Shown here piece after piece: positions 2,404 to 35,915 of a stretch of DNA of 64,000 bases. The stretch is taken from the sequence record OV696614, one strand, 5' to 3'. Made by a program: the position numbers and the translations under genes. The stretch comes from Escherichia phage Cyrano. The first letter of the stretch is position 1. Each line of letters begins with the position of its first letter. The notes under the pieces were generated by a model, which was not told the DNA's origin, searched no databases, and was given only the letters and a program-made list of their open reading frames with translations.

Positions 2404-5400
2404 CTTCTCACTTGGGGAGTCGGCTCTAAAAGCAGAAAACGCGGTGAAGATTGCCAGAGAAGCTGGCTACACCGCTGTAATTTCAGCAGATAGCATGAAT
2501 ATTGCGAGTGTTATTCCACTACAACGTGCCGCTGGTGACGACATGGCGGTTATTTGTGGTGTGAAACTAAATATCGTTGATGATCCCACATACGAGCACC
2601 GGGCTAAACTTGCTAAAGAATCTATGAGATGTATGGAATCATTAGAGCGGGGACGTAACTACTCGTTTACCGCTCTAATTAAAAATGAGCAAGGATATCG
2701 CGACATCTGCGAACTAATGACGGCGGCCAACACACGAGAACAGTTCTACTTTGTACCGCGTCTCTCGCTCGAACAGTTGGTTTCTACATATGCCAAAGGC
2801 AACATCATCCTGCTTACTTCCGACATCGGTAGCGTGTTCCAACGCAACGATTTTGCAAAAATCATAAGCACACTGATTACAGCGGGTGGAAAAGACAACT
2901 TCTATAGTGTGGTTTATCCGCACCCTACCCCATTCTACGACCAGATTAACGTCCGGGCGATGAAAGTCGCCAGCGCATTGAAAATAGAGCCAGTGGCGTT
3001 CTATCCCGCTTATTACGAATCGATCGACGATGCAGACATTAAAGACATTGCGCACATGGTTACGAACAACATCAAAATCGACCAGCCGCATCGTCTGCGT
3101 ATCCCCCACCAGCGAGATAACGCCATCAATGGTCGTCGCCATCTCCTTGAGGCGCTTAAAGCCTTCTCCGTTCGCATGGATGTGCCGGTAACAGCTGCAA
3201 TGGCCTCAACAACGCAGGACTCCATTATCGATGCCTGCACATGGCGCTGGCATGAATTGCCACCAGCACTGCCCAAGATGGCAGACGACGAACCTGCAAC
3301 GCTGATGAAACTGGCTGTTGCAGGGCTGCGTAAACGTCTTACCACAAAAGAGTTTGGATACACACCACCTGCTTCTGAGAACAGGGTTTATGTTGAGCGG
3401 CTAAAGTACGAAATGGACACGCTGACTCGCCTGGGATTCTGTGGTTACTTCCTGATGGTACGCGATCTGATGAATCACAGCCGTGAAACTGGCATTCCTG
3501 TCGGGCCTGGTCGTGGTTCCTCTGCCGGTTCTCTGGTGGCGTGGTGCATAGGCATAACCAACGTCGACCCAATCCGTCACGGTCTTCTGTTTGAGCGTTT
3601 CATCAACCCTGAGCGTCTCGACTTGCCGGATGCGGACTTGGACTTCAGCCAGGCACGTCGCCATGAGGTGATCGAGTATCTGAATGAACGCTACGGCGAA
3701 GATTACGTTGCAGGCATTCCGAACTTCACCTATCTGGGCGCGGCATCTGCACTACGTGACACCGCTCGTATTTATGGTGTGGAGTCCGCAGATATGGCGG
3801 TATCAAAAGAACTGAAGAACGTCGAGGATGATAGCCTTCCATTGGAAGAGCTGCGCGAACAACTGGCAAGTCTCGACAAATACGCAACAAAATATCCTGA
3901 TGCATTCAATGCAGCCTGCAAGTTACAAAGCCTTATGCGTGGCTTTGGTAGACATGCGGCAGGGATGATCGTAGCAGGTGTTCCTCTGACAGAACGTACA
4001 CCGGTTGAGCGCCGTGGTGACGCGCGTTGTATCGCATTTGACAAGCGTTACTGCGAGGCTATGGGCCTAATTAAGCTGGACGTGCTTGGCCTGGCAACTC
4101 TCGATTTGCTCGATAGTGCAAAACGCTACATCAAAGAGAGTACCGGGGAAGACATCAATCTCGACGCTATCCCACTGGACGATCGCAAGGTTCTGGATGG
4201 GTTCGCTGCAGGGTACACGCAGGGCGTATTCCAGCTGGAGTCCGGCCCCATGCGTAAGTTGCTTAAAGATCTGGGCGGTGGCATCGAGCCAATGAGCTTC
4301 AAGACCGTTGTCGCCACGACCGCACTCTTCCGACCAGGCCCGATCCAATCCGGCATGTTGGACGACTATGTCTCCGTGGCCAAAGGCTTCATGGCTCCAC
4401 ATTCAATTCATCCGCGTCTTGAGGAAGTCACCCGGGAGACTAATGGTGTTTTGCTCTATCAGGAACAAATCATGCAAAGTTCCCGAGTACTTGCCGGGTT
4501 CTCTATGGCCGAAGCAGACGCTCTGCGTTCCGCTATCGGTAAAAAGAACATGGATAAGATGAAAGCGATCGGCAGCGATTTTGTAGAACGAGCACAAGCA
4601 GGCTGGGTGACACTGTCACTCAAAAATGGAGGTACTGTAGAGGTTCACAAACACGCAAAACTGGATTGCTCAGACGGTAAGCGTAGAAGCTACAGCGAGG
4701 CTATTAGTGACGGCATAGACTACGTGGAGATCGTCTCTGAACAAGAAGGTCTCAGTAAGGAAAAAGCCCAAGAAATATGGGACGCCTTTGAGAAGTTCGG
4801 TGGATATGCCTTCAACAAATCACACAGTGTTGCTTATTCTTTAATCAGTTATCAGTCTATGTGGCTAAAGACGCACTACCCTGCTGAGTTCTTCGCAGCT
4901 GCGCTCACCATTCTGGGCGAGGATAAGCATCAGGGGCTGGTGAAGGATGCGCTGACCTATGGCATTCGCGTATTGCCACCAGACGTTAATGTGTCATCTA
5001 ACCGAATTGAGATCCGCACACTCGAAGACGGCAGTCAGGCACTGTATGCGCCATTCTCTGCTGTGAAAGGCTGTTCTGAAAATGGTTGTCAGGCAATTAT
5101 GCGTGCGCGTGAGAAAGTTGGTGGCAAATTCGAGTCAGTGGCACAATTCGATGAAGCGGTCGAGAAGCGTGCATGTAACAGTCGTGTACGCGAGTCGCTT
5201 CATAAAGTAGGGGCTTTTGCGTCAATTGAGCCAGGCAGTCTGCCAGCAACTGATCCTGAACGACTGCGCGACCAGGCTGAGCTGATGGGCAATCTCATCA
5301 TTGACGCTGTTAAAGCATCACGTCCGTTCGAAATGAATCCTAAGCGTTCTGCCGAAATCAACGTACTCATGACACGTATGGCGGCTGAAATGGGCTTGGG

Positions 5401-5913: not shown

Positions 5914-6187
5914 TAAAGAATTATGGCGCTTGTTGAGGAAGTCACTCCTCTTACGCACTTTGTTTTGCCATGCCGGCAGTTAGCTTCTGCCTTTGACTAT
6001 TCATGCGGCAACCCCGCATTTCGCCACAATGGGCAATTCACTTTTATGGAATAAACTGGCCGTTGTGTCGATTTAATTAGCATGGCCTTACCATGCTAAT
6101 TTATTCAACTTGTACAATCCTACAAATCTATCCACTCAGGCTTACACCGTCTTCGTTATTGTAGAAATGAGGATCATCAGCGTTGAA

Positions 6188-6403
6188 TCAGCTTAGAGCA
6201 ACGACATTTGCTGCTGCTGGGCCTTTAGCACCATTCTCGATAGAGAATTCGACCTGCTGGCCTTCTTCCAAAGTGCGGAAATTATTACTCTGAATTGCCG
6301 AAAAATGTACAAAAACATCTTTACTGCCATCAGCAGGAGAAATAAAGCCAAAGCCTTTATCAGAGTTAAACCATTTTACTAAACCAGTCATTTTATTAGA
6401 CAT
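6188..6403 (-). CDS. cold-shock protein, CspA family
   Basis: 71 aa starting [21 protein letters not shown]...; RNP1/RNP2 motifs (KGFGFI, VFVHF); very similar to enterobacterial CspA-family proteins by recall. Long 5' leader typical of csp genes. Confidence 0.85.
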
Positions 6404-6732
6404 AGATATTACCTTCTTAATTTTGTGAGCCACATAGTGCGGCGAGAATTTGATCTGTATAGATTGGGACTTACTTAGGCACTTAAGGAGGAGACTCACG
6501 AAGAAGGGAAATCAGAAGATAACACTGAACTGAGACTGCTTTACTAAAACTGCTTACATAAGGTCTGTCTTGCAAACCAACGATGCTATTAACGCATACC
6601 CCTTCTTTTCATGCAACCTTTATTTTTCAAAGATAACTAATTTTTGTCACCATTGGTTTAGTAAACGTTAACGAACCAGACGATGCCAGACACCTTTACA
6701 GAGAACAGATGCCCGCCAATTGGCGGGCATCA

Positions 6733-33681: not shown

Positions 33682-33843
33682 TTTGTTCTGGCGTCTGTAA
33701 TTAGCCTGCTTCTGTATATATAAATAACTACATATTAATTATTAATATACGGAAGCAGGCTGTTTTATATCAGAGACTCCCAGACCTGAACACCACTACA
33801 GAATCCACTAGAACCCCTTCCCAGACGCTTTAAAATCGATTTT

Positions 33844-34098
33844 ATGAACCACTTTAAGGAAACCAACATGTCATACCCGACTAATGTCGTTGCGCTCGTA
33901 GAGAGCGATTTTCTGGCCCAGGCTCGTGAAATGATGAAAGATCGTGAGCAGGCTTTCAACTTGTACGAGTGGGCAATTAAGTGCTTGCATCTTGGCGAGC
34001 ATCGCGAACTTGTTGAACAGCTTTTAGGTGAGTTGATCAATGAGGTGTTTGCCTTGAATGTTCAACTACATGGTCGAGAAAATAATCAATCACAATGA
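33844..34098 (+). CDS. hypothetical protein
   Basis: 84-codon ORF; no recognisable motif. Confidence 0.4.
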   Translation: MNHFKETNMSYPTNVVALVESDFLAQAREMMKDREQAFNLYEWAIKCLHLGEHRELVEQLLGELINEVFALNVQLHGRENNQSQ

Positions 34099-34681
34099 TA
34101 GATAAGTACAAACTATTTATAAAGTGAATTGTAAGTGCTAAGATCTGATAGTTTCCAGTCGTAGACTGGAGACTCGACCTGATGGGTGGGGGTAAGCGTC
34201 ACTGGCGTCAGGTTTAAAAAAGCTCACTACCAGCGTAGAACCGGCACCGTTTAGGGGTTGGGGAAGGGGGAACCAAAGTGGGCAGAGACAAGGGTCACTT
34301 TATGATTGTCGAGTCTGGAGTGTTTCGAGAGGTTGAATCCAGTACTCCCCTTCATAAAGTGTGGGAAGATCTCGGTTCTGGGGTGCTGTCATCCATAACT
34401 TCCCAAGCCTAAGCTGGCAGTAGACTTAGGTCATAACTTTTCAGGTTATGAAACGACCAGGTTGGTGAGGAAATTTTGTACTCACCTCCCTGGGAGAGTA
34501 TTACCTGAAAAGACAACCTCTCACTTCGTTCGAGGTGAACTTCACTCACTTCGTTCGTTCAGTTCAGGTTTATAAAAACCTGTTCTGGGAAGTAATTTGT
34601 TTATTTTAATAATTATTAACACGCACGCGTGTGCGCACGCGCGAGGAAAAAATCGGCGCGGCGCTTGATTCAGGAGTTTAT

Positions 34682-35275
34682 ATGACGACGAAGACACCAG
34701 CCCGATCGCAAGCAAAAACTCGCAAAAAAGCCAAAAACAAAAATTCTCCCCGCACCAATCCCACAACGTCTGTCGTAGAGTTCAATCCCCAGCTTAAAAC
34801 CGTGAAAATCTTCAGTGATGGCTCTTGCCTTAAAAATCCGGGTGGCCCGGGCGGTTACGGTATAGTTCTCCAGTATCGTGGTGAGGAACGCGAGTTCTCA
34901 GATGGTTTTCATAGCACCACCAATAACCGCATGGAGATGATGGGGGCACTTATCGGGCTGGAGCGTTTGAAATATCCATGCAACGTTATTTTGCACTCTG
35001 ATAGCCAGTATCTGAAAAACGGCATGACACTGTGGATGAAATGGTGGAAACGCAATGGATGGATGACTTCTGACAAAAAACCGGTAAAGAATGTTGATCT
35101 GTGGAAGCGTCTGGATGAGGCCGCAAGTCGACATAATGTTCGCTGGAAGTGGGTTAAAGGTCACGCCGGGCATCGTGAAAATGAAATATGTGATCGACTC
35201 GCGAAGATCGCAGCTTTTTCAGCAGCAGATATGCCTCACAAGAAAGATATTGGTTTTGTTTATAACAAGTGGTAA
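34682..35275 (+). CDS. rnhA: ribonuclease HI with basic N-terminal extension
   Basis: [17 protein letters not shown]...TNNRMEMMG...[41 protein letters not shown]...[20 protein letters not shown] closely tracks E. coli RNase HI. Start set at ATG 34682 (AGGAG RBS); the listed 34631 GTG lies inside a palindrome. Confidence 0.85.
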
Positions 35276-35420
35276 GTAAGTGTTTACCTATCATTTTAAA
35301 TCATGTATCTTATCAGCGTCAGGATGACAATGTGTCGGTAAGACACAGTTCCAGGATGGAACGAGAAAGGCGGCTGGCAATCGCCAGCCGCAACTCTTTC
35401 TGACACTGGATGGAGTCCAC

Positions 35421-35915
35421 ATGGCACGTCAAACCTATTTCACTTCTGCAACTAAACGTCCTCGTTCACTACGTCAAATTTTGGCCGAATTATTTAGCGG
35501 TCGTGTTCTGTCACGTCTTGATGAACTGGAGACTACCGTTCGGTTGCTGAATGAACGTTTAGATAAGCAAGCGTCAGTTGTTGCGAACGTGGGGGCGATT
35601 GTTACCTCTGGTTCTTCACACCAAGCGAAAAATGCACGGCCTTTAGTGAAGGAGAAAAACAACAAGGACAGTTCGAATGGAAAATTTTCAAAGAAAGAGG
35701 CTGAAACCAATGGCCTACGTTCTCATTATAGTTTCACTGGCGACGGTAGCCGTTCCAGCCGGCCAGAGCCTTTTGATGCCGGGTTCATCCATCACCACAC
35801 CTCCGTCGACGACAATTACCACCACTCCAGTAGAGCGTCCTGTCACTCTGGATGGGATGACGGTGGATGCGATACCTCAAGTTCATCCGGTTACTCAGGA
35901 TCATGCTGTGACTAA
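35421..35915 (+). CDS. hypothetical protein (3' portion of reading frame doubtful)
   Basis: N-terminal ~95 aa look protein-like; the remaining frame is Ser/His/Cys/Gly-rich low-complexity and overlaps a better-looking ORF in another frame. Confidence 0.3.
   Translation: MARQTYFTSATKRPRSLRQILAELFSGRVLSRLDELETTVRLLNERLDKQASVVANVGAIVTSGSSHQAKNARPLVKEKNNKDSSNGKFSKKEAETNGLRSHYSFTGDGSRSSRPEPFDAGFIHHHTSVDDNYHHSSRASCHSGWDDGGCDTSSSSGYSGSCCD

Follow-up and report, generated by a model that had tools for sequence, protein, structure and literature searches.

Here we report that positions 34151-34595 (+ strand) of a 64,000-nt stretch of Escherichia phage Cyrano (OV696614), the whole of which is called the window below, most plausibly constitute a previously undescribed gene for a structured non-coding RNA of about 445 nt that belongs to SSU5/pHCM2-like phage-plasmids and acts in trans, a reading to which we give a probability of roughly 0.55. 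The RNA represents a new family of large structured RNA, which is retained whatever gene lies downstream and has no match in Rfam. An earlier note, made from the sequence by itself, had proposed that this region may encode a structured RNA, and that proposal is now strongly supported by covariation, by conservation of the RNA core above that of the flanking genes and by the lack of a conserved open reading frame (ORF).

By blastn comparison with plasmids and phages, the window derives from an SSU5/pHCM2-like phage-plasmid of E. coli: a 1.85-kb stretch around the gap in which the RNA lies shares 98% identity with Escherichia phages CMS-2020a and PhiR41_1, 81% with Salmonella phage SSU5 and 78-79% with Klebsiella relatives. 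The gap is contained in a rightward module for replication and nucleotide metabolism, in the order DNA polymerase, SSB, ribonucleotide reductase, thymidylate synthase, DHFR, DnaQ-like exonuclease, Dam-like methylase, small ORF, gap and RNase HI. A long AT-rich hairpin with a T-run behind it, conserved in relatives, stands at 33698-33766, 3' of the Dam-like methylase gene, and is likely a terminator that isolates the joint unit of small ORF and RNA from the methylase. In every relative the small ORF neighbours the RNA slot on its upstream side, whether the slot carries the RNA of the window (type A), its divergent form or the RNA that we call type B. A Pfam scan of its product found no match, the homologues are all named hypothetical, and the modelled structure, a three-helix bundle (pLDDT 79), has no significant fold match in the PDB. 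A role for this product as a Rop-like RNA binder was considered and rejected, given that the bundle is generic and without a significant PDB match. Elsewhere in the window, on the - strand, an Rfam scan returned a full-length match to the cspA thermoregulator at 6163-6581 (RF01766, 187.6 bits); a gene for a cold-shock protein, together with the regulatory 5' UTR that belongs to it, is therefore part of the phage-plasmid.

Results

The gap holds no conserved reading frame

The gap extends over 583 nt (34099-34681), from the stop codon of the small ORF to the ATG of the RNase HI gene, rnhA (Table 1). The earlier view that it contains no convincing ORF is borne out: mechanical ORFs of 25-46 aa occur on both strands, none exceeds 46 aa, and every one of them, on either strand, is frameshifted or interrupted by a stop codon in some homologue. 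Indels in the core measure 1, 2 and 7 nt, none a multiple of three, and a Pfam scan of two of the gap ORFs (34278-34412 and 34462-34575) found no match. The frame-breaking indels and stops thus rule out a conserved ORF, and a conserved protein-coding gene, the outcome against which the earlier note had set its proposal, was looked for and not found. Two further features described there are present as well, namely a duplicated unit, CACTTCGTTCG, at 34522-34532 and 34547-34557, and an alternating purine-pyrimidine tract before the start codon, CACGCACGCGTGTGCGCACGCGCG, at 34620-34643, which lies 38 nt 5' of the ATG.

Table 1. Features of the RNA locus and its immediate neighbours, in coordinates of the window.
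Feature	Position	Strand	Description
Small ORF	33868-34098	+	76 aa from this ATG; stop codon at 34096-34098
Degenerate palindrome copy, possible operator	34097-34116	.	GATAGGTAAGTnnTTACCTATC-like; abuts the -35 element, sharing one base
Promoter-like element	34116-34144	+	-35 TTTATA (34116-34121), 17-nt spacer, TG-extended -10 TAAGAT (34139-34144)
5'-terminal hairpin	34152-34172	+	UUUCCAGU-CGUAG-ACUGGAGA; directly after the predicted start
Structured RNA core, type A	34173-34595	+	At least 16 helices; conservation and covariation
Candidate pseudoknot or switch	34432-34512	+	CAUAA/UUAUG hairpin; loop CUUUUCAGG (34437-34445), partner CCUGAAAAG (34504-34512); read from the alignment
Twin hairpins (helices 14 and 15)	34517-34566	+	Duplicated CACUUCGUUCG (34522-34532 and 34547-34557) in or next to the loops
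AT-rich spacer	34596-34619	+	3' of the core; sequence variable, AT-richness and 30-45 nt length kept in all groups
Alternating tract, GAGGAAAAAATCG and GC-rich hairpin	34620-34665	+	Tract of 24 nt (34620-34643), then GAGGAAAAAATCG, then the hairpin; boundary of cargo change
RNase HI gene, rnhA	34682-35275	+	197 aa; CAGGAG ribosome-binding site; Pfam RNase_H, 8e-44

The + strand folds into a structure supported by covariation

Several hairpins had also been noticed in the gap, and they are part of a fold that goes beyond chance: the + strand has a minimum free energy (MFE) of -168.7 kcal/mol (z = -4.26), and none of 100 shuffled sequences folds as well. Both strands fold much better than shuffled sequence (z = -4.3 and -4.4), the + strand being the more stable by 27 kcal/mol. 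Among 50 unique close homologues the consensus comprises 134 pairs, of which nine have double compensatory changes and almost none is broken, with many one-sided changes from G-U to G-C or A-U. With the inclusion of a divergent subgroup, RNAalifold returned 98 pairs in 16 helices, in which 98.8% of cells form a standard pair, compared with 33-49% in slid controls. For the same structure, 30 pairs are changed on both sides (2-7 in slid controls) and the covariation score is 0.38 (0.05-0.10 in slid controls), values attained by none of 500 shuffles; most of this covariation stems from one split between two subgroups, so that the independent events are few, and fewer than the cells. The region thus displays two marks of a generic structured non-coding RNA, compensatory pairs beyond controls and the lack of a conserved reading frame.

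The structured strand is the + strand, as judged from G-U pairs and folding energy. G-U accounts for 12% of cells and would be C-A if read on the opposite strand, and the + strand MFE is the lower by 18-32 kcal/mol in seven homologues.

Two long-range pairings, read by eye from the alignment, suggest pseudoknots or a switch. In the first, the loop CUUUUCAGG of a CAUAA/UUAUG hairpin would pair with CCUGAAAAG; the divergent group has UUCUGG and CCAGAA at these positions, where an A:U pair has become U:A, and in the stem of the hairpin itself A:U is replaced by G:C (alignment pair 327:337). The second candidate would join the invariant GAGAGGUUG (34327-34335) to CAACCUCUC (34514-34522). Within the twin hairpins, both copies of UUCGUUCG survive in the divergent group, despite a 7-nt deletion adjoining the second copy, and apart from the two 11-nt units the core has no internal repeat array. 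A G-quadruplex reading was rejected, the region having no canonical motif and its G-runs being lost in the divergent subgroup.

The core is more conserved than the genes around it

Core identity is 90.7-99.8% in 49 unique relatives. In blastn comparisons with SSU5, pHCM2 and plasmids of Klebsiella, Enterobacter and Citrobacter the core is 89-94% identical, against 78-81% for the whole stretch with its genes. Segment by segment, it reaches 97.9% in SSU5, 92.2% in pJN2-26 and 92.3% in a Salmonella Newport plasmid, and in the same three relatives the flanks are identical at 74-77% (small ORF) and 76-81% (catalytic part of rnhA). When the whole window was compared with 50 kb of SSU5 in 300-nt stretches, the best of them was 34251-34550, with 98.7% identity; the median was 78%, the 95th percentile 91%, and the DNA polymerase gene stood at 94-96%. 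Relative to SSU5, the core is therefore conserved above any protein gene in the window. Recombination near the neighbouring cargo hot spot could account for some of this extreme conservation.

PLSDB contains 686 plasmids with the element, and of 5426 complete E. coli genomes 232 (4%) have it, all but two of these copies being on plasmids. No feature is annotated beneath any match listed in the complete E. coli genomes, and no annotation of the RNA was found in RefSeq or in any record examined. The RNase H of SSU5 is given in RefSeq as a 765-nt ORF (SSU5_090 in NC_018843.1; 4946-5710 of SSU5 locus L002) with a 5' end reaching into the RNA, and some plasmid records place a small hypothetical coding sequence inside it; both the start of SSU5_090 and the starts of these small coding sequences within the RNA are probably wrong.

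The divergent subgroup (L184-L188), with a core about 72% identical, was found in viral contigs through a search with an alignment of the small ORF. A search of genome contigs with the small-ORF alignment gave two close loci, and a search of metagenomes with a conserved motif gave close relatives together with chance matches. The DNA-motif search of viral sequences reached relatives of at least 87% identity, the divergent subgroup being recovered only through the viral small-ORF alignment search.

A promoter-like element, a 5' hairpin and a palindrome persist upstream

The 75 nt 5' of the core diverge strongly, and the promoter-like element, the 5' hairpin and the palindrome persist in them. 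Six upstream variants that differ strongly in other respects all have the arrangement TTTAnn, 17 nt, TAnnAT, the -10 being mostly TG-extended. A generic promoter scan did not list the element at 34116-34144, of which the -35 matches three of six bases and falls below the threshold. The predicted start of transcription lies near 34151. For the hairpin that follows, at least five completely different sequences occur with the stem preserved, and two of its pairs (22:43 and 25:40 in the close-homologue alignment) show four pair types each.

At the site of the degenerate palindrome, SSU5 has the perfect palindrome GGTAAGTACTTACC. The palindrome core motif is enriched in the window, with 37 sites where 18.9 are expected, and GATAGGTAAGTnnTTACCTATC palindromes of about 20 bp each lie at 888, 8280, 13071, 18824, 23508, 28220, 33061, 34102, 35276, 40245 and 52311. 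Those between genes are usually found directly 3' of a stop codon, overlapping a -35-like TTTAC. From their sequence and placement, the GATAGGTAAGTnnTTACCTATC palindromes look like dispersed operators for a phage regulator, much as P1 has its scattered C1 operators.

The RNA precedes a hot spot of exchangeable cargo

RNase HI of the window shares 59% amino-acid identity with E. coli RNase HI, as compared with a sequence that we take to be that of the E. coli enzyme and that is consistent with the PDB matches (E about 1e-61 to PDB chains). Its DGS, NNRME, DSQY and ENExCD motifs align with the E. coli enzyme and are those of an RNase_H protein with the catalytic Asp/Glu/Asp/Asp. It had been described as unusually close to the host enzyme; at this level of identity it is an ordinary homologue, host-like in kind. 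The Lys/Arg-rich N-terminal extension, put at 40 aa in the earlier note, was found to span 37 aa with nine Lys/Arg (34682-34792), and this basic extension (residues 1-37) is poorly conserved.

The RNA occurs in 83 distinct downstream contexts, and in 67 of them rnhA lies within 1.2 kb. It is absent or decayed in the other 16, where the RNA stands upstream of unrelated genes or rnhA remnants, so that the constant association with a regulated gene expected of an rnhA-specific leader or riboswitch is not found. The RNA persists where rnhA is replaced and is thus not an rnhA-specific leader; the regulatory leader that had been offered as a second reading of the region is not supported as stated. 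Other cargo after the RNA comprises a betT transporter, rnhA remnants, frameshifted rnhA, a protein that looks TIR-like by eye and, throughout the divergent subgroup, an unknown 196-aa protein. With cargo so varied, the slot is a cargo hot spot of which RNase HI is the commonest occupant.

The 3' side of the core is occupied by TCTGGGAAGTAA, the AT-rich spacer, the alternating tract and GAGGAAAAAATCG, in this order, beyond which the sequence differs between lineages. Alternation in the tract is perfect and kept across relatives, with variation by whole dinucleotide units and in length: in a comparison of L002, L004, L007 and L184, the tract is shorter in pHCM2 than the 24 nt of the window, and the divergent subgroup keeps only CGCGCGAG (CGCGCG). 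Judged by this pattern, the tract looks like a slippage-prone or Z-DNA-prone sequence at the cargo boundary. A permissive Rfam scan gave a weak two-hairpin match over the 34620-34665 region. Cargo changes just 3' of GAGGAAAAAATCG (34644-34681 in the window), at the same position in L006, L009, L083, L099, L111, L158, L184 and L236, and several of the cargos other than rnhA share a conserved leader, ATCGCCCATCGTAATGTCTTCAATGTGCC.

A terminator scan found no canonical terminator between the core and the next gene, and a promoter scan found no + strand promoter between the core and rnhA; the RNA may therefore physically be the 5' part of the cargo mRNA.

On the far side of rnhA, the stretch 35283-35420 contains a promoter-like TTTACC-17-TATCTT, two AGGAU-loop hairpins (35325-35335 and 35348-35362), a GC-rich hairpin (35370-35391) and GGAUGGAG at the ribosome-binding site of the ORF that starts at 35421. 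This stretch is conserved in relatives, has a weak CsrB match in a permissive Rfam scan and, in its motifs, resembles a CsrA-binding leader or a small sponge RNA.

A second RNA occupies the same slot in other relatives

About 30 Klebsiella plasmids (e.g. pCAV1099-111) have the methylase, the small ORF, a gap of about 570-650 nt and RNase H. Their gap holds a structured RNA of about 470 nt, type B, with 146 pairs, in which 96.6% of cells are paired, compared with 36-45% when slid, and 15 pairs carry double changes, compared with 0-3. Type B is like type A in its slot, in its roughly equal size, in having a promoter-like element and a 5' hairpin, and in its strong covariation. It is unlike type A in that its 5' hairpin is followed by a U-run and in that no homology between the two was detected by blastn, by nhmmer or with a covariance model of the type A central domain. 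Type B loci have no Rfam match. Type B RNAs of this kind lie in L107 (at 2760-3260), L108 and L189-L191, with three AGCGAAAC repeats before the start of RNase H. Given this unrelated structured RNA of about 470 nt in other relatives, the slot selects for a large folded RNA.

Discussion

The Rfam/Infernal scan that the earlier note had recommended was run on the window and gave no Rfam 15 match for the region, only chance-level matches to miRNA or lncRNA families; the RNA remained without a match at both gathering and permissive thresholds, in the window as in a divergent homologue. ARAGORN found no tRNA or tmRNA anywhere in the window, and no published description of the RNA was found in the literature on SSU5/pHCM2 with ncRNA, RNase H or origin. 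Among known RNAs, the large 'ornate' RNAs ROOL and GOLLD of phages and prophages come closest in kind; they exceed 400 nt and have many covariation-supported helices, candidate pseudoknots, no known protein partner and an unknown function (PMC12286853, PMC5737381); GOLLD is expressed during lytic growth (PMC12286853). The RNA of the window shares with them its large size, its encoding by a phage, a multi-helix fold backed by covariation and candidate pseudoknots. Unlike ROOL and GOLLD, it does not match their Rfam models, as a homologue would, and it is found in an enterobacterial phage-plasmid, in a window without tRNA, between a small ORF and a cargo hot spot.

We propose that the RNA would be transcribed from its own TG-extended sigma-70-type promoter, which abuts a putative dispersed palindromic operator, and that release of this operator would switch the RNA on along with the early genes for replication and nucleotide metabolism. 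A hairpin would protect the transcript at its 5' end, and the folded RNA would act in trans as a scaffold or decoy. Its target would be a highly conserved factor of the host or the phage, bound by parts of the RNA that are invariant and exposed: the twin UUCGUUCG hairpins, a GAUCU.G.UUCU internal loop and a CUGGCA loop. Action in trans is suggested because conservation exceeds that of any protein gene, because the invariant parts are exposed loops and because the adjacent cargo is irrelevant to retention. A trans-acting scaffold or decoy, which would resemble other large ornate phage RNAs and differ from a regulator of rnhA, is the mechanism that we favour, at about one chance in three. The CsrB/RsmZ sponge RNAs offer a partial parallel, with a possible decoy function and a repeated motif in hairpin loops; the RNA of the window differs from them in having only two copies of a different motif (UUCGUUCG) and in carrying GGA mostly in stems. 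Antisense action on sequences of the window was rejected, the RNA being no more complementary to other parts of the window than chance would give. A search for a second copy of the RNA within the window found none.

A different way of reading the locus, possible and in our judgement rather doubtful, is that of a generic cis-acting leader or expression platform that would serve any downstream cargo (rnhA, TIR-like, betT or unknown) through read-through, stability or translation. The lack of an intrinsic terminator and of a + strand promoter between the core and rnhA is consistent with such a leader, as are the conservation of the core, the AT-rich spacer and a CGCGCGAG(G)AAA module up to the point of cargo change, the GC-rich hairpins just 5' of the rnhA ribosome-binding site, and the hairpin and U-run at the start of type B, which could be an attenuator. 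However, 445 nt conserved more strongly than the DNA polymerase gene are hard to explain in front of unrelated and often decaying cargo, and the most conserved parts are distant from the cargo start. The cis antitermination RNAs put and EAR, moreover, measure 70-120 nt, a fraction of the length found here.

The position in a replication and nucleotide-metabolism module, usually beside a phage RNase HI, brings to mind a lytic replication origin at which the transcript would serve as primer or R-loop RNA (as in ColE1 RNA II, the T4 R-loop origins or a mitochondrial LSP/CSB-like system) and be processed by the adjacent enzyme, and we consider this unlikely. In common with ColE1 RNA II, the locus would have a highly structured transcript of about 450-550 nt upstream of AT-/GC-rich sequence, usually near an RNase H function, with folding conserved through compensatory change; the distance of about 450-520 nt from promoter to AT-/GC-rich tracts is similar to that of RNA II, G-runs occur at 34184-34192 and 34254-34270, and an AT-rich stretch follows the core. 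Unlike ColE1, the locus has no obligatory link to RNase H: 16 of 83 contexts lack an intact RNase HI gene, the whole divergent subgroup among them, and that subgroup also does not keep the G-run pattern. Nor does it have an antisense RNA I unit, as neither an Rfam RNAI match, nor a minus-strand promoter about 100 nt into the transcript, nor a minus-strand terminator near its start was found. Cumulative GC skew climbs smoothly across the site and shows no inflection that would signal an origin, no iterons or DnaA boxes were noticed, and type A is uncorrelated with replicon type, occurring with IncFIB, rep_cluster_763 and rep_cluster_488.

Selection on the DNA itself, which could anchor the recombination that exchanges cargo, offer an array of protein-binding sites or serve in packaging or partition, would fit an element that flanks a cargo hot spot and whose 5' hairpins and core types have been reshuffled among lineages (L008, for example, combines a Klebsiella-type hairpin with an SSU5-type core), and the alternating purine-pyrimidine tract, a sequence of a kind that can form Z-DNA, could also be accommodated. 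Against this stand the 30 compensatory pairs and the G-U-specific, strand-asymmetric pairing, which are unexpected for duplex DNA sites, together with the lack of an internal repeat array beyond the two 11-nt units, and we regard a DNA-level role as very improbable. Finally, the reading that the region encodes one or more small proteins, such as a Hok-like type I toxin, has next to no likelihood and was rejected, for the mechanical ORFs that might speak for it are all frameshifted or stop-containing in some homologue, the core carries indels of 1, 2 and 7 nt, the two ORFs scanned have no Pfam match, and none is hydrophobic, so that the small, hydrophobic and conserved ORF of a hok/sok-type toxin mRNA is not found.

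Returning to the trans-acting RNA, a broader and more tentative possibility is that it represents a new class with a biochemical role so far undescribed among phage RNAs, perhaps as a ribozyme, in an RNA-only assembly or as a decoy that engages a conserved host machine or a defence sensor. Types A and B of this class would be non-homologous and functionally equivalent, marking a hot spot for cargo and defence genes.

Clinical E. coli, Klebsiella, Salmonella and Enterobacter commonly carry SSU5/pHCM2-like phage-plasmids, whose most conserved element is an unannotated RNA. Its recognition corrects database records in which the RNase H ORF is extended into the RNA and small hypothetical genes are called there. 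In Enterobacteria, very few large structured RNAs have been described, and with E. coli as the host the function of a large phage RNA becomes open to genetics, probing and cryo-EM.
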